From Rubricoccaceae bacterium (GTDB lineage Bacteria > Bacteroidota > Rhodothermia > Rhodothermales > Rubricoccaceae), in the NCBI GenBank assembly GCA_963811175.1, contig CAWEQE010000002.1, positions 276,797 to 340,796 on the forward strand: 64,000 nt of DNA, written 5' to 3'. The notes under the pieces are model-generated. The model did not search any database and was not told the DNA's origin. It saw only the letters and a list, made by a program, of their open reading frames with translations. How positions within the stretch are numbered: position 1 is the stretch's first letter; the number at the start of each line of letters is the position of its first letter. A program made the position numbers and the translations under genes. Below, in pieces: positions 13,211 to 59,874 of the stretch.

Positions 13211-13247
13211 GCTCCCGGTCCAGGTTCGGCGACTCTGGACCGGGAGC
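13211..13247. terminator. 13-bp hairpin directly downstream of tRNA-Ser
   Basis: GCTCCCGGTCCAG ... CTGGACCGGGAGC perfect inverted repeat. Confidence 0.55.
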
Positions 13248-13334
13248 GGAGAGAGAGGGATTCGAACCCTCGGTACCGGGAACCGGCACACGCGCTTTCC
13301 AGGCGCGCCCCTTCAGCCACTCGGGCACCTCTCC
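13247..13334 (-). tRNA. tRNA-Ser(GGA)
   Basis: GGAGAGGTGCCCGAGTGGCTGAAGG...GCGCGC-CTGGAAA-GCGCGT, long variable arm, GGTTCGAATCC T-loop, acceptor stem CTCTCC-G; CCA not encoded. Confidence 0.95.
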
Positions 13335-30278: not shown

Positions 30279-31691
30279 ATGAACGCCTTCCGCTTTTTCG
30301 CCCTCGCCCTGCTGGCGGCCGTCGCCCCCGCCGCGGCGGCCCAAGACTTTCCCGCCACACCGCCCGCGCCCGGCGAGCCCGCCCCGTTCGAAGTCCCCGA
30401 GGGCCGGACGTTCACGCTCGACAACGGGCTCGCCGTCACCCTCGTCCCGTACGGCGCGCTCCCCAAAGCCAACGTGCTCGCCGTGGTCCGCGTCGGCAAC
30501 GTGGACGAGGGGGTGGGTCAGAACAGCCTCGCCGACCTCACGATCCCGCTCCTGACCGAAGGCACGGAGACGATGTCGGCCGAAGAGATCGCCGAGGCGG
30601 CGGCCTCGATGGGCGGTTCCATCTCAGCCGGCGCTGGGCTCGACCAGACGACCGTCGGCGGGCGCGTGCTGAGCGAGTTCGTGCCCGAGTTCGTCCGCCT
30701 CACGGCCGACGTGCTCCGTCGCCCGGCGTTCGACGCCGACGCCTTCGAGCGGAACCAGCGGAACCAGCTTCGGGGCGCGGCCGTCGCGCGGTCGCAGCCC
30801 GGCACCGTGGCACTGGCGGCGTGGCGGCGCGCGCTCTACGGCGACCATCCCTACGCCTCGGTCATCCTCCCGGACGCGGCGGCCATCGAGGCGGCGACGC
30901 CCGACGACGCCCGCGCCTTCTACCAGGCCAACGTCGGCCCGGCGCGGACGCGGCTCTACGTCGTCGGCCAGTTCGACGAGGACGCGACCGAGGCCGCCAT
31001 CCGCGCGGCGTTCGGGGACTGGGACCGTGGCGTGGTGGCCGCGGACCCGACCCCGCCCGAGACCTCGCCCGCCGGCCGGCGCGTCCTCCTCGTCGACCAG
31101 CCCGGCGCGGCCCAGTCCCAGGTGACCGTCGGCGTCCCGACCGTCGACCCGTCCGACCCGGAGGAGTACGTGGAGCTTCAGGTGACGAACGCGCTCCTCG
31201 GCGGCTCCTTCGGCTCGCGCATCACGCGCAACATCCGCGAGGACAAGGGCTACACCTACAGCCCCGGCTCGTCCGTGTCGTCGCGGTTCCGGAACGCGTA
31301 TTGGGCGGAAAGCGCCGCCATCGTCACGCCGTCCACCGGCCCGGCCATCCGCGAGATCCTCTACGAGATCGACAGCCTCGCCTCGAACCCGCCCTCCGAG
31401 GAGGAACTGGAGGGGATCAAGAACTACCTCGCCGGGACGTTCGTCCTCCAGAACTCGTCGGCGGGTGGCATCGCCGGGCTCCTCTCGTTCCTCGACCTCC
31501 ACGGCCTCGACCGGAGCTACCTGGACGAGTACGTTCAGCGCGTCTACGCCGTCACGCCGGAGGACGTCCAGCGCGTGGCGCGCGACGTGATCCGGGGCGA
31601 CGACGCGCTCGTCGTGGTCGTCGGAGACCGGAGTGTGGTGGAGGAGCAGCTCCAGCCCTTCGGCGACGTGGTGATCGAGACGGTGGAGTAG
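30279..31691 (+). CDS. M16 peptidase non-catalytic partner subunit
   Basis: Signal peptide; no HXXEH; LLGGSFGSRITRNIREDKGYTY. Confidence 0.88.
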   Translation: MNAFRFFALALLAAVAPAAAAQDFPATPPAPGEPAPFEVPEGRTFTLDNGLAVTLVPYGALPKANVLAVVRVGNVDEGVGQNSLADLTIPLLTEGTETMSAEEIAEAAASMGGSISAGAGLDQTTVGGRVLSEFVPEFVRLTADVLRRPAFDADAFERNQRNQLRGAAVARSQPGTVALAAWRRALYGDHPYASVILPDAAAIEAATPDDARAFYQANVGPARTRLYVVGQFDEDATEAAIRAAFGDWDRGVVAADPTPPETSPAGRRVLLVDQPGAAQSQVTVGVPTVDPSDPEEYVELQVTNALLGGSFGSRITRNIREDKGYTYSPGSSVSSRFRNAYWAESAAIVTPSTGPAIREILYEIDSLASNPPSEEELEGIKNYLAGTFVLQNSSAGGIAGLLSFLDLHGLDRSYLDEYVQRVYAVTPEDVQRVARDVIRGDDALVVVVGDRSVVEEQLQPFGDVVIETVE

Positions 31692-31841
31692 CTCCTCCCG
31701 TTCGTCCGGCTCTTCTACGGCCCCGCTGGCGAGCTCGCCAGCGGGGCCTCGTCGTAGAGGGGCGGAGGGCTGAACGCGAGCGGCGTTCTCTGTTTGTCTT
31801 AGACTTGAGTCGCGAACGTCTCCTCCGCGCACTCCGCTCTC

Positions 31842-32498
31842 ATGGACAACGCCCTCGACAACGCGCCCTCGGTCATCGAAGCCGCCGCACAGAGCCCCCT
31901 CGGGATTCTGGCCCTCCTGATCCTCACCGTCGGGGTCATCGCGTACCTCTTTTTCCAGAAGTCCAGCGACCGCGTGAAGGTCGTCATCTTCAGTATGATT
32001 TTCGTCGGGATGGCGGGCTTCGGGCTCGTCATCCTGGTCCAGGCGGCGCCGACGCCCTCGCCTGGCGACGGGCCTGAGCGGACGGTGGGGCGCTCGACCG
32101 AGGCGCTCCGCGAGGATCGCCCGACTCCTGAGGCGGACCGTCCCGCCCAAGCCGGTCCACCGGCGGCCCGCCCTCTCGTGGATGTCGAGGAGCCGGAGCC
32201 GGCTCGTCGGACGGAGATCTCGCTGGCCTACCTCGGCGACCTCTATAGCTGCGGCCTCCAGCTCCAGGTGCGCATCGGCGACCAGACGGCCGTTCCACAA
32301 GGCAATTCCTTTCGGATGAGCGGCGTCCTCGAAGGTCCGCAGCCGTACGAGATCCGCGGGTCGATCCAGTGTCCGTACGTCGGCTCGTGCGAGGCAGTAG
32401 GGGAGGGGACGCTCACCGTCGTGCCCAATGCGGCCTACAACGTGGTGTGGCAAGGGACCGATAGCGGTCTCTGCGACGTGACGCTCCAGCGCGGGTAG
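31842..32498 (+). CDS. Hypothetical membrane protein (2 TM + Cys-containing beta domain)
   Basis: Two N-terminal TMs, Pro-rich linker, four Cys in the C-terminal domain. Confidence 0.65.
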   Translation: MDNALDNAPSVIEAAAQSPLGILALLILTVGVIAYLFFQKSSDRVKVVIFSMIFVGMAGFGLVILVQAAPTPSPGDGPERTVGRSTEALREDRPTPEADRPAQAGPPAARPLVDVEEPEPARRTEISLAYLGDLYSCGLQLQVRIGDQTAVPQGNSFRMSGVLEGPQPYEIRGSIQCPYVGSCEAVGEGTLTVVPNAAYNVVWQGTDSGLCDVTLQRG

Positions 32499-33597: not shown

Positions 33598-33660
33598 GAG
33601 AGGGGAGGAAGGAGAGGGGTCCGTTGAATCCGAGCACGTCCGGCGGTGTTTCTCCCAGCC

Positions 33661-34815
33661 GTGACCGAGCCCTCGACTCCCGCTCTCTACGACGTCGCCA
33701 TCGTCGGCCTCGGGCCGGTGGGCGCGACGCTGGCGGCGCTCCTCGGCGGACGTGGGCTCCGCGTCGTGGTGCTAGAGCGAGAGACGACCCCGCACACGCT
33801 CCCCCGCGCGGCTCACCTCGACGGCGAGGCCCTCCGCATCCTCGACGCGGCCGGTGCGCCCGCCGCACATCTCGGCCGTCCGCTCGACGGGTTCGACCTC
33901 GTCGATGCCGCCGGCCGGCTCCTGCTCCGGGGACGCCCGTCCGAAGGGCCACCGCCCGGATTCCCGGCCGGCGTCCTCATCCACCAGCCCGACGTGGAGT
34001 CTGTCCTCCGGTCTCGGTTGTCCGACCTCGCAACGGTCGACGTTCGCCACGGGCACGCCGTCGAGCAGGTGGAAGAACGGACCCGCCTCGTGACGATCCG
34101 AGGCCGTCGCGGCGACGAGCCGTTCGAGGTCCGCTCGTCGTTCGCCGTCGGGTGCGACGGAGCGGCCAGCCGTGTGCGCGAGGTCCTCGGTGCGGAGCTG
34201 GTGGGCCGAGGCTTCGAGCAGCGGTGGCTCGTGGTCGACACGCTCCTGATGCGTCCGGTGGATCTCCCGAGCCGGCTGCTCCAGATCGCTGATCCACGCC
34301 GCCCGACGACCTTCGTCCCATTCCCCGACCCGCGCCGCCGGTGGGAGTTCAAGCTGACGGACGACGAAGACGCCGACGCGATCCGCCAGCCGGCGGCCGT
34401 CCGCGCCCTGCTCGCGCCACACGTGGCCCCCAACGCTGTGGAGGTCGAGCGCGCGGCGATCTACACCTTCCACGACCTCGTCGCGCGGCCTTGGCGGCGG
34501 GGCCGCCTGCTGATCGCGGGCGACGCGGCGCACCAGATGCCGCCGTTCCTGGGCCAAGGCCTCGGCGCGGGTCTCCGCGACGCCTGGGCGCTGGCGCCGC
34601 TCCTCGCCGGCGTCGCAGGCGGGGCGCCGGCCGAGTCCCTGGACACGTACGAGGCCGTCCGCCGCCTTCACGTCGAGGCCGTCGTGCGGCAGGCCGTCCG
34701 GCTCGGTCGGCTCGTGACGCTGCCCCCACCGCTGGCGACGCTTCGGGACGGCGCGCTTCGGCTGGCGCATCGCGTGCCGATTCTCCACCGCCCGTTGCTC
34801 GACGTGCGCGGGTAG
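33661..34815 (+). CDS. FAD-dependent monooxygenase (MhpA-like)
   Basis: GLGPVG Rossmann fold, VGCDGAAS, IAGDAAHQMPPFLGQG. Confidence 0.88.
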   Translation: MTEPSTPALYDVAIVGLGPVGATLAALLGGRGLRVVVLERETTPHTLPRAAHLDGEALRILDAAGAPAAHLGRPLDGFDLVDAAGRLLLRGRPSEGPPPGFPAGVLIHQPDVESVLRSRLSDLATVDVRHGHAVEQVEERTRLVTIRGRRGDEPFEVRSSFAVGCDGAASRVREVLGAELVGRGFEQRWLVVDTLLMRPVDLPSRLLQIADPRRPTTFVPFPDPRRRWEFKLTDDEDADAIRQPAAVRALLAPHVAPNAVEVERAAIYTFHDLVARPWRRGRLLIAGDAAHQMPPFLGQGLGAGLRDAWALAPLLAGVAGGAPAESLDTYEAVRRLHVEAVVRQAVRLGRLVTLPPPLATLRDGALRLAHRVPILHRPLLDVRG

Positions 34816-34949: not shown

Positions 34950-35380
34950 CGTGGATGCTCAGCACGCGGTCGTCCACACTGTGGATAGGGGTGTTGATAA
35001 CCCGCCCCTCACCGGGGAGGCCCGTGGACGAGCCGGATGATGGGGCCGAGGCCCGGTTCGTCAACTCCGGTCCGCCCACGGAATACCCGACAGGTTCTCC
35101 ACAGGTCCGCGGCCTCCCGGGCGTGCGGGTTAGGGCCGGAGCCTCCTCGTGGACGACGGTGGACTTGTGGACGAGATACCCGAGATCGGACCAGGGGCCT
35201 GCCTCAGCGACTCCTCGGCGGCCGCTCGGCGTGGACAGGGATGTGGATAGCGGGTGGGGTTGTCCACGGCTACGCACATCGGCGGCGGGCGCTCTGGTTG
35301 TCCACGGTGTCCACAGGCCTACTACTATTTCTTCTTTACCTAAATAACTAAACCGAATTAAAGAGGGGCGTGGAGAAGTC
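34950..35380. other. Probable chromosomal replication origin (oriC)
   Basis: About a dozen DnaA-box-like 9-mers (e.g. TGTGGATAG 34980 and 35242, TGTTGATAA 34992, TTCTCCACA 35095, TTGTCCACG 35260 and 35298, GTGTCCACA 35307). These are followed by GGCC, TACTACTATTTCTTC trios and an AT-rich run at 35341-35363. Confidence 0.85.
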
Positions 35381-35497
35381 CGCCAAGGCGCCTCCGCCTC
35401 CGGTATACCACCCTGTACCAGGAGGGTGACACCCTGACACCTGTCCTCCCCAGTCGAGCCCTACCCGTACCTTTCAGGCCCTTCTCCCGACGCCCCC

Positions 35498-36349
35498 ATG
35501 ACCCAGCGAATCCTCGTCGTCCTCGACCCGGACTCCGATACGCCTGTCGCCACGCACACCGCCATCGAGATCGCCCGTCGCTACGACGCCGAGGTGACCG
35601 GGCTGGCACTCGTCGACAAAGACTCCATCGAGAGCGATTCGCTCGGTGGGGGCATCGGGTCGATGCACTATGCCGAGAAGCTCCGCCAGCGCCTCACGGA
35701 AGAGACGCGCGAGCGCGCCAACGCCCTCATCCGGACGTTCGTTGAGGAGGTGGAAGCCGCCGGCGTCACCCATACCGGCGACCGCGTGGGGGAAGAGGGG
35801 CTCGTCCGGAGCCTCGTGGACCAGATGAGGACCCACGACCTTCTCGTAGCTGGACGCGTAAGCCATTTTTACTATGCGGACCCGGATCAGCGGACGCACA
35901 CGCTCGCCAAGGTGATCCAGTCGGCTGCCGCGGCGACGCTGATCGTGGGGAACACGCCGCCGGTTGTGCAGCGCGTGGCTGTGGCCTACGACGGGAGCAC
36001 CCCGGCCGCGCGCGTGCTCCAGAAGTTTGCCCACCTCCGCCCGTTCGGGACGGACCTCGACGTCGAGCTGGTCCACGTCCGGGGCGGGAGCTCGGCGGAC
36101 CGGCTCGCCAGCGAGCGGCTCCTCCACGACGCCGAGGCTTACCTCGGGGCCTACGGGTTCGGGTCGGTCACGCTCTCCAGCATCGAGGGCGACCCCTCGG
36201 AGCAGATCCTCCGCTACGCCGACGGCACGCGCGCGGACCTGATGGTCTCGGGGGCCTACACCAAGAGCGGCTTCCGCAAACTCGTGTTCGGGTCGACCAC
36301 GACGAAGCTGCTGGACGACGCGAAGATCCCGCTCTTCTTGTACCACTGA
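35498..36349 (+). CDS. Universal stress protein (tandem UspA domains)
   Basis: RILVVLD, HDLLVAG, VAVAYDGS, DLMVSGAY...LVFGSTT. Confidence 0.9.
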   Translation: MTQRILVVLDPDSDTPVATHTAIEIARRYDAEVTGLALVDKDSIESDSLGGGIGSMHYAEKLRQRLTEETRERANALIRTFVEEVEAAGVTHTGDRVGEEGLVRSLVDQMRTHDLLVAGRVSHFYYADPDQRTHTLAKVIQSAAAATLIVGNTPPVVQRVAVAYDGSTPAARVLQKFAHLRPFGTDLDVELVHVRGGSSADRLASERLLHDAEAYLGAYGFGSVTLSSIEGDPSEQILRYADGTRADLMVSGAYTKSGFRKLVFGSTTTKLLDDAKIPLFLYH

Positions 36350-56524: not shown

Positions 56525-57673
56525 TTGAACCTCCGCCATCTTCGTCTGACCCATTTTCGGGCCCACACGGGTACGTCCCTCGACCTGTCTCCTCGCGTCA
56601 ATGTGTTCGTCGGCTCTAATGGGGCTGGCAAGACGAATCTGATCGAGGCGGTCGGGTACTTGTGTCTGGGCAAGAGCTTCGTGGCGTCCACCGACCAGCA
56701 CGTCGTTTCGAGAGGGGCCTCTTATTTCGACGTCGCGGGTCGGTTCGAGAGCGACCACGGCACCAGCGTCTCCGTGCGTCTCGCGTTCGTCCCCGGTGAG
56801 GGCAAACGGGCGTTCGTCAACGGTGCTCCTCTCGACCGTCTGGCGGACCTCGTCGGCCGGGTTCCTGTCGTGATCCTCTCTCCCTCCGACTACGACTTGA
56901 CAGCGGGTGGACCCTCCGAGCGGCGCCGATTCCTCGACGCCACCCTGAGCCAGGCCTACCCTGTCTACTTGGACGATTCGCTCAAGTACCGGCGTGCGTT
57001 GAAGCAGCAGAATGCCCTTCTCCAATCAGCGCGGAAGGGCCGTTCTGTCGCCGCCGACACGTTCGATGCGTGGGAGGAGGAACTGGCTACGTTGGGGGGA
57101 CGGCTGATGGAGCGGAGGCGTTCGTTCCTCGATCGGTTCGTGTCGTTCGTCGCGGACGCGTATCGACTGTTGGACTCGCCTGGTGCCGAGCCTACCCTTA
57201 CCTACGCCCCGTCGGTTGATGTCGAAGATGGGCCCTACGACTCGCTTCGCGAAGCGCTCGTACGGTCTCGCCGTCGGAGCCGCCAGCTTGGCCGAACGCT
57301 CGTGGGCCCCCACTTGGACGAAGTCTCGTTTCAACTCGACGGCTTCGACGTTCGTCCGTTCGCTTCTCAGGGTCAACACCGCACGTTCGCCCTTGCCGTT
57401 CGACTCGCTCAAGCGCTTTACCTCCGCGATCGCCTGGATGAAACGCCTCTTCTCCTCCTCGATGACGTGTTTGGGCCTCTCGATTCGGACCGGACCTCAC
57501 TCGTCTTGGATCTTCTTGCGTCGGGCCAGATCGGGCAGTCTCTCATTACGGCAGCGCGTGAAGAACCCTTCATGGGGTCTGTTCCGTTCGAAGACTCCGA
57601 GCACGCACTGTTTCACGTGGAACACGGTGAGGTCGCTCCCACCTTCTCCTCCTCAACCTCTCTAGATTCATGA
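56525..57673 (+). CDS. recF: DNA replication/repair protein RecF
   Basis: FRAH, GSNGAGKTNLIEA, ERRRFLD, GPHLD, SQGQ, LLLLDDV. Confidence 0.95.
   Translation: MNLRHLRLTHFRAHTGTSLDLSPRVNVFVGSNGAGKTNLIEAVGYLCLGKSFVASTDQHVVSRGASYFDVAGRFESDHGTSVSVRLAFVPGEGKRAFVNGAPLDRLADLVGRVPVVILSPSDYDLTAGGPSERRRFLDATLSQAYPVYLDDSLKYRRALKQQNALLQSARKGRSVAADTFDAWEEELATLGGRLMERRRSFLDRFVSFVADAYRLLDSPGAEPTLTYAPSVDVEDGPYDSLREALVRSRRRSRQLGRTLVGPHLDEVSFQLDGFDVRPFASQGQHRTFALAVRLAQALYLRDRLDETPLLLLDDVFGPLDSDRTSLVLDLLASGQIGQSLITAAREEPFMGSVPFEDSEHALFHVEHGEVAPTFSSSTSLDS
57609..57624. other. parS centromere-like site
   Basis: TGTTTCACGTGGAACA, matching the parS consensus, inside the recF 3' end. Confidence 0.85.
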
Positions 57674-59858: not shown

Positions 59859-59874
59859 GGTTCCACGTGAAACG
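59859..59874. other. parS centromere-like site
   Basis: gGTTCCACGTGAAACg: 14-bp parS core, intergenic between MaoC and MMPL. Confidence 0.75.

Follow-up and report, generated by a model that had tools for sequence, protein, structure and literature searches.

The element described here is a cluster of DnaA boxes joined to a DNA unwinding module, which lies at positions 34970-35377 of the 64,000-nucleotide stretch that was analysed (the window) and which is very probably the single chromosomal origin of replication (oriC) of a Rubrivirga-like genome (Rubricoccaceae, Rhodothermales). The window corresponds to C2:276,797-340,796 in a 3.77-Mb assembly that is 95% complete, has a G+C content of 72% and consists of three contigs (C1, C2 and C3) whose order is unknown. 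An earlier note, made from the letters of the window, had proposed a probable oriC at this place, and the proposal is supported by the conservation of the boxes and of the adjoining trios, by the exclusive linkage of parS sites to the cluster, by a switch in strand polarity and by a position opposite dif in relatives. Computation established the architecture of the locus, how unique and how conserved it is, and where it lies relative to polarity words, parS and dif. Taken as a whole, the element comprises an array of boxes, the unwinding module and a box on the far side of that module; the cluster is unique in the genome, and the cores of its boxes are invariant.

The cluster sits inside a 682-bp intergenic gap between a monooxygenase gene and a universal stress protein (Usp) gene. 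This gap contains ~16 nonamers that are related to the DnaA box TTATCCACA and are placed in both orientations, where about a dozen relaxed boxes in both orientations had been noticed earlier. Matches to TTNTCCACA with at most one mismatch number 10 within 34970-35377, as compared to 17 in the remaining 63.6 kb, and the window's total of 27 was reached in 0 of 100 shuffles. When 500-bp stretches of the whole 3.77-Mb genome are ranked by the same count, the cluster holds 10 boxes and the runner-up 3. Similarly, the cluster has 14 copies of the five-base core TCCAC/GTGGA in 450 bp, as compared to a maximum of 9 elsewhere in the genome and a background of 3.2 per kb. At the left edge of the array, the forward-strand box TCGTCCACA (34970-34978) is followed by two boxes on the reverse strand, TGTGGATAG (34980-34988) and TGTTGATAA (34992-35000; TGTGGATAA in most relatives), and the cores of all three are invariant in an alignment of 12 genomes of the genus (66% mean column identity). 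A further minus-strand box, CGTGGACGA at 35023-35031, has three mismatches and retains an invariant GTGGACG in the 12 genomes, while the plus-strand box TTCTCCACA at 35095-35103 has one mismatch. Three co-oriented minus-strand boxes, CGTGGACGA, GGTGGACTT and TGTGGACGA, occupy 35148-35174, all with invariant GTGGA cores, and are followed by two more on the same strand, CGTGGACAG and TGTGGATAG (35230-35250), and then by a plus-strand tandem pair (35260-35278) formed by TTGTCCACG and the degenerate CTACGCACA, which reads TCTCCACA in relatives. Words other than boxes are conserved as well: GATGGGG (35039), CGTCAAC (35059), CCGCCCACG (35072) and GGGYTAG (35127) within 35039-35211, together with GAGATC (35182, the sole GATC) and CAGCGAC (35205, shared with the origin of G030, a genome from another family). 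These words may be sites for origin-binding factors.

The right-hand end of the array carries the unwinding module. Two abutting, co-oriented plus-strand boxes, TTGTCCACG (35298-35306) and GTGTCCACA (35307-35315), are invariant in the 12 genomes and are directly followed by GGCCTACTACTATTTCTTCTT and an A/T-rich run, just where the earlier note had placed both. Within this stretch, a G+C gap, GGC (35316-35318), separates the boxes from six DnaA-trios on the minus strand (35319-35336; CTA CTA CTA TTT CTT CTT on the top strand, 3'-GAT GAT GAT AAA GAA GAA-5' on the minus strand), and the trios adjoin an A/T-rich DNA unwinding element of 29 bp, TACCTAAATAACTAAACCGAATTAAAGAG (35337-35365; 72% A+T). 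The note had read this segment as GGCC followed by TAC-TAC-TAT-TTC-TTC from 35320; the trios are indeed present, but that register is off by one base. Alignment with Bacillus subtilis gives a GGC gap and a CTA start, such that every triplet has a central A on the minus strand, and the TAC-TAC-TAT frame from 35320 was rejected because a T would occupy the triplet centre. Windows of 45 bp with at least 70% A+T occur at 27 loci genome-wide, one of which abuts the tandem boxes. On the far side of the unwinding element, and facing it, lies the minus-strand box CGTGGAGAA (35369-35377), whose GTGGA is invariant in the 12 genomes; a box also follows the A/T tract in G030 and in the Rhodothermus-like genome G020, which represent two other families. 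The AGAGGGG that precedes the far-side box is conserved too, and convergent boxes bracket the unwinding element.

The module was compared with the basal unwinding system (BUS), which is defined by a box with at most two mismatches, an optional second box, a spacer of 0-16 bp and at least three NAN trios (Pelliciari et al. 2021). The spacer has a mode of 10-13 bp (Pelliciari et al. 2021, PMC8287927), the second box is co-oriented, has at most four mismatches and lies within 3 bp, and the trios, which have a central adenine and the consensus 3'-GAT-5', lie on the strand complementary to 5'-TTATCCACA-3' (PMC8287927). At the locus studied here, TTGTCCACG and GTGTCCACA each differ from TTATCCACA at two positions, the two boxes are co-oriented with zero gap, 12 bp separate the upstream box from the first trio (the 9-bp second box plus GGC), and six consecutive central-A trios follow. 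Every sequence feature by which a BUS is defined is present. The arrangement resembles the BUS of the B. subtilis oriC (DnaA-boxes 6/7 and the A/T-rich 27-mer; Richardson 2016/2019, Pelliciari 2021), as both consist of co-oriented boxes, a G+C gap, trios and an A/T tract. The B. subtilis module reads TTATCCACA AATCCACA GGCC CTA CTA TTA CTT CTA CTA with a spacer of 12 (Pelliciari 2021, PMC8287927), whereas the Rubricoccaceae module reads TTGTCCACG GTGTCCACA GGC CTA CTA CTA TTT CTT CTT. The 12-bp spacer is common to both, so that the likeness to the B. subtilis box-gap-trio layout, already remarked upon in the earlier note, extends to the distance between the upstream box and the trios. The differences are that the Rubricoccaceae module lies 569 kb from dnaA-dnaN rather than between these genes, that there is one box cluster rather than two flanking dnaA, that the boxes show a G+C shift (to G at position 3 and often also at position 9), and that the A/T tract is closed off on its far side by an inverted box.

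The cluster is far from dnaA and close to parS. A single dnaA gene, with dnaN directly downstream, is located at C2:880-883 kb, which agrees with the earlier description of the cluster as unlinked to dnaA. Upstream of dnaA are two good boxes, TGTGGATAA and TGTGGACAA; a search of this upstream region found no A/T-rich tract and no trio run, and we read the two boxes as ordinary dnaA autoregulation. A better box-trio cluster beside dnaA, which had been named beforehand among the observations that would speak against the proposal, was looked for and is not present, as the region upstream of dnaA has only these two boxes. The distance between dnaA and the cluster varies among relatives, from 234 kb in G007 and 291 kb in G008 to 410 kb in G005, 422 kb in G010, 513 kb in G017 and 613 kb in G001. 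The two parS sites of the window, TGTTTCACGTGGAACA (57609-57624, within the 3' end of a recF-like gene) and GGTTCCACGTGAAACG (59859-59874, intergenic), are the only ones in the whole genome; they lie 22-24.5 kb from the cluster, as had been noted (22-25 kb to the right). Six other same-genus genomes were searched: in five of them every parS site is found 12-37 kb from the cluster and none is close to dnaA, and the sixth, G005, whose assembly is 69% complete, showed no site. The RecF-like gene (SMC_N / AAA_23; 56525-57673), with one parS in its 3' end, has remained origin-proximal, unlike dnaA-dnaN, and parB is on another contig (C1:181.5 kb). The segment 56000-62000, which holds recF, an M48 peptidase gene, the parS sites and an MMPL transporter gene, has a G+C content of ~60%, as compared to 72% for the genome.

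To follow strand polarity, we used the most strand-skewed 8-mers in the one-directional part of C2, which are GGGNAGGG-type words. GGGNAGGG is the same word as the FtsK orienting polar sequence (KOPS) of Escherichia coli. These KOPS-like words were used because nucleotide GC skew is too weak: its amplitude is ~0.01 or less, its minima are broad or lie elsewhere, and it was not used as evidence either way. The words are minus-biased over all of C1 and plus-biased on C2 past ~300 kb, and on C3 they change from plus to minus at ~346 kb. A two-state change-point fit to C2 with the broad word set places the switch at 308,205 (support 302-323 kb), with the cluster 4 kb away at 312,100, whereas a switch at dnaA is 17 log-likelihood units (lnL) worse. 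When plus- and minus-strand genes are averaged separately, the polarity minimum stays at ~300 kb, and no switch is seen at dnaA. The closed relative G017 (4,167,368 bp) was analysed over the 2.0 Mb around its homologous cluster and dnaA. Its GGGNAGGG change-point falls at 3,654,624 (support 3,634-3,730 kb), and the homologous cluster occupies 3,653,926-3,654,288; the best switch point is at most 0.7 kb from the cluster, whereas placing the switch at dnaA costs 18.8 lnL. Plus-strand copies make up 0.30 of the words left of the cluster, 0.62 of those in the interval from the cluster to dnaA and 0.70 of those past dnaA; this switch holds after correction for gene strand, and gene orientation in G017 turns ~100 kb from the cluster. 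The skew inflection that the earlier note had suggested as a check is therefore answered in two parts, as nucleotide GC skew does not locate the origin, whereas the inflection of KOPS-like polarity maps to the cluster in both genomes. We also observe that GGGNAGGG and GGGGAGG-type words form the most skewed oligomer family in both the source genome (G000) and G017, and that their skew is slight around the origin but strong in the direction of dif. The KOPS-like words suggest an FtsK-orienting role in Rhodothermales.

The position of dif provides a further reference point. A search with proteobacterial and firmicute dif consensus sequences found nothing. With the generic XerCD core ATAA-N6-TTAT, a single match appears in the 3.77-Mb genome, at C3:343,475, inside the range supported for the polarity switch on C3; it lies in a candidate dif site, ACGATAAC AGTTA TTATCGCAC, at C3:343,472-343,493 (outside the window). 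The extended dif-like site ACGATAAC-N5-TTATCGCAC is found once per genome in relatives, at 1,553,810 in G017, 2,759,618 in G001, 2,247,386 in G008 and 3,477,324 in G030. Replichores were calculated for three large relative chromosomes: two of these are closed single contigs, and for G001 the 4.15-Mb main contig (of two) was treated as the complete chromosome. With the cluster as the starting point, the replichores are 49.6:50.4 in G017, 51.8:48.2 in G001 and 47.2:52.8 in G008, whereas from dnaA they are 37:63, 67:33 and 41:59, respectively. In all three chromosomes the cluster is opposite the unique dif-like site and dnaA is not.

Of 18 same-genus genomes, 16 share the gap that holds the cluster at 65-70% identity. 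In the 12-genome alignment, the invariant elements are all box cores, the trio start CTACTACT and the far-side GTGGA; along the trio run, CTACTACT shows little or no variation and a C is conserved at each third base, and the spacers between origin elements drift freely, with indels. Among 121 Rhodothermales genomes, the strict box-box-gap-trio pattern is confined to this genus, each of whose genomes has one copy, and homologous modules in other families were located via their parS and Usp neighbourhoods. A box cluster is found upstream of a Usp homologue in eight of eight related loci. The box-trio module is readable in six same-genus loci and in two distant low-G+C contigs of Rhodothermaceae (L021 and L022), in which box-box-CTA-repeat-A/T modules lie directly upstream of Usp homologues. 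The closed 4.81-Mb genome G030 has an 8-box cluster at 1,154 kb that adjoins pgi, lies 230 kb from dnaA, has parS sites 34-40 kb away and divides the chromosome into replichores of 48:52 relative to the dif-like site. Its module reads CTATCCACA TTTCCACA GGCC CTA CTA CTA C..., followed by an A/T-rich tract and then by GCTGTGGAG, and shares the layout box-box-GGCC-CTACTACTAC-A/T-box. Genome G020 (closed, 3.43 Mb) carries a 15-box cluster beside pgi (its C1:~31,300-31,900), 31 kb from dnaA, and a second cluster of six boxes just upstream of dnaA (C1:3,430,500-end). DoriC-derived tables place the origin of Rhodothermus marinus at the dnaA-adjacent cluster (Pelliciari 2021); the rule that oriC is found next to dnaA may have mis-assigned this catalogued origin, because the Rhodothermales origin appears to travel with usp, pgi and parS, and not with dnaA. 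Given G030, G020, the low-G+C Rhodothermaceae contigs and the table entry for Salinibacter ruber, detachment of the origin from dnaA is an order-wide condition, which is already partly catalogued.

The catalogued S. ruber entry and two other cases help to place the Rubricoccaceae locus among origins that are separate from dnaA. The predicted oriC of S. ruber DSM 13855 contains tandem boxes, TTATCCACA TTTCCACA, a 3-bp gap and CTA-first trios (DoriC ORI10020025; Pelliciari 2021 supplementary), and thus shares with the Rubricoccaceae origin the tandem boxes, the 3-bp gap and a trio run starting with CTA; both organisms belong to the order Rhodothermales. This module is at 13.0 kb in its record (Pelliciari 2021 supplementary), and therefore, judged by coordinates, it is not at the record start, where dnaA is conventionally placed. 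The S. ruber oriC, which is a prediction only, differs in its far smaller distance, its shorter trio run (3) and its other neighbour genes. The earlier note had called the origins of this lineage poorly characterised, which is only partly fair, as predicted origins of both S. ruber and R. marinus were already in DoriC. The oriC of E. coli, located between mnmG and mioC and ~42 kb from dnaA, is the classic origin apart from dnaA. It has been described as a rearranged origin (PMC8287927), and it differs in its 13-mer repeats, its use of IHF/Fis, its GATC/SeqA control and its weak BUS score, whereas the Rubricoccaceae origin has a single GATC and a strong Bacillus-type module. In Synechococcus lividus PCC 6715, DoriC 10 records a box cluster 'far from dnaA and dnaN' (PMC6323995), as is the case here, although this organism belongs to another phylum and uses the box dialect TTTTCCACA. 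The same source reports A/T-to-G/C shifts at box positions in G+C-rich genomes (DoriC 10, PMC6323995). Origins remote from dnaA are thus already catalogued, including the predicted Salinibacter one, and the Rubricoccaceae locus adds one more; its mildly unusual features are limited to the large and variable dnaA distance, the far-side box and several conserved non-box words.

From this architecture we infer how the origin would work. DnaA would bind the ~16 boxes, which are written in a G+C-shifted dialect (TTGTCCACR / TCGTCCACR) and spread in both orientations over ~350 bp, and the last co-oriented boxes (35298-35315) would act as the platform of a Bacillus-type BUS. A filament of DnaA-ATP would extend from this platform across the 3-bp G+C gap onto the six minus-strand trios (35319-35336), stretch the trio strand and open the adjoining 29-bp A/T-rich element (35337-35365), after which helicase loading would lead to firing of the origin and bidirectional replication. 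The conserved inverted box (35369-35377) would close the far side of the opened region. On this reading, the origin has retained its linkage to parS and usp, with dnaA-dnaN now 569 kb off (234-613 kb in sister species). The far-side box together with AGAGGGG could constitute a second, mirror-image platform that places DnaA or a second helicase on the opposite strand. That the Rhodothermales origin represents a variant of the Bacillus type, with convergent DnaA boxes on either side of the unwinding element, is a speculative idea that we consider rather unlikely.

Several observations weigh against an origin at 34970-35377. With GGGNAGGG alone, the best switch on C2 is at 215 kb, where the cluster is 4.6 lnL worse and dnaA 8.0 lnL worse. 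In the source genome, gene-orientation bias is weak, with a cumulative minimum at ~1.0 Mb, raw cumulative GC skew has its minimum at C2:101 kb, and strand-corrected skew at third codon positions (GC3) is flat from ~300 to 975 kb. The strand-corrected GC3 skew of G017 is noisy, and its formal minimum is nearer dnaA, within the noise. Finally, when the source contigs, whose order is unknown, are joined by polarity, the replichores are ~60:40 from the cluster and 45:55 from dnaA. The last two points, along with the pair of good boxes upstream of dnaA, are what could be cited for replication that starts beside dnaA, with the cluster serving as a DnaA-titrating or recycling locus (like datA or DARS) or persisting as the relic of a dead origin. 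We judge this to be very improbable, as two boxes with neither A/T tract nor trios resemble ordinary autoregulation, neither genome has a KOPS-like polarity switch at dnaA (-17 to -19 lnL), dif is opposite the cluster and not dnaA in the three large relative chromosomes, and parS tracks the cluster. Moreover, titration would not need a conserved box-gap-trio-A/T module.

The other explanations that were weighed against a single chromosomal origin at the cluster have an even smaller chance of being correct. One is that the cluster belongs to an integrated plasmid or secondary replicon, or that it is a second chromosomal origin alongside another. Some plasmid origins do carry DnaA boxes beside A/T-rich tracts (DoriC 10, PMC6323995), and a preprint predicts dual origins in Halomonadaceae. 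No other box cluster is found anywhere in the genome, however, and a plasmid source is difficult to reconcile with housekeeping flanks that contain no rep or mobility genes, with a locus that is syntenic across the genus, and with its location at a chromosome-wide polarity switch and opposite dif. Equally improbable is a cluster that acts as a DnaA-controlled promoter or operator of the downstream usp gene instead of as an origin. The cluster is directly upstream of usp, this linkage is conserved, and the stretch from the cluster to the usp start contains a conserved GGTATACCAC...GTGACA element, but 16 boxes with trios and an unwinding element go far beyond what is known of any promoter regulated by DnaA, the homologous module adjoins pgi instead in G030 and G020, and the positions of the polarity switch, dif and parS would be left unexplained. 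Roles as a usp promoter and as an origin are not mutually exclusive.

The chief value of the single-origin assignment is a well-supported origin call for Rubrivirga (Rubricoccaceae), a genus for which we know of no experimental replication data. It indicates that a member of the Bacteroidota-Rhodothermota with 72% G+C has retained the Bacillus-type box-gap-trio module and its 12-bp spacing unchanged. The locus also illustrates that the position of dnaA and nucleotide skew can both fail as guides to the origin, whereas KOPS-like polarity, parS and dif succeed here, an approach that is useful for genome annotation and for growth-rate estimates from metagenomes. The finding leaves the present picture of origin function as it was.

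The genes on either side of the gap were identified from Pfam, which agrees with the earlier description of the flanks as a monooxygenase and a Usp gene rather than dnaA/dnaN. To the left, a plus-strand gene (33646-34815) encodes an FAD-dependent monooxygenase (FAD_binding_3, E = 4.9e-53), and to the right, also on the plus strand, 35498-36349 encodes a tandem, two-domain universal stress protein (Usp). Further left, rplM, rpsI and rpsB (16.7-18.9 kb) and a tRNA-Ser gene (13246-13334) are all on the minus strand, and their transcription therefore points away from the cluster, as previously noted. The possibility of a gene or RNA within the gap was rejected: an Rfam search of the gap returned no RNA match, none of its open reading frames has coding-type GC3, and the indels seen in relatives are not multiples of three. 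The stretch from the origin to the usp start contains, at 35402-35440, a conserved GGTATACCAC...GTGACA(N)TG(N)CA element, which is probably the usp promoter or operator. Elsewhere on C2, outside the window (~1,080,690-1,081,180), a run of ~490 T lies between two near-identical repeats of ~45 nt and is most likely a long-read assembly artefact. Among public reads, the locus was found in only one, shallow, soil-metagenome run (272 million letters; 19% of sampled words).

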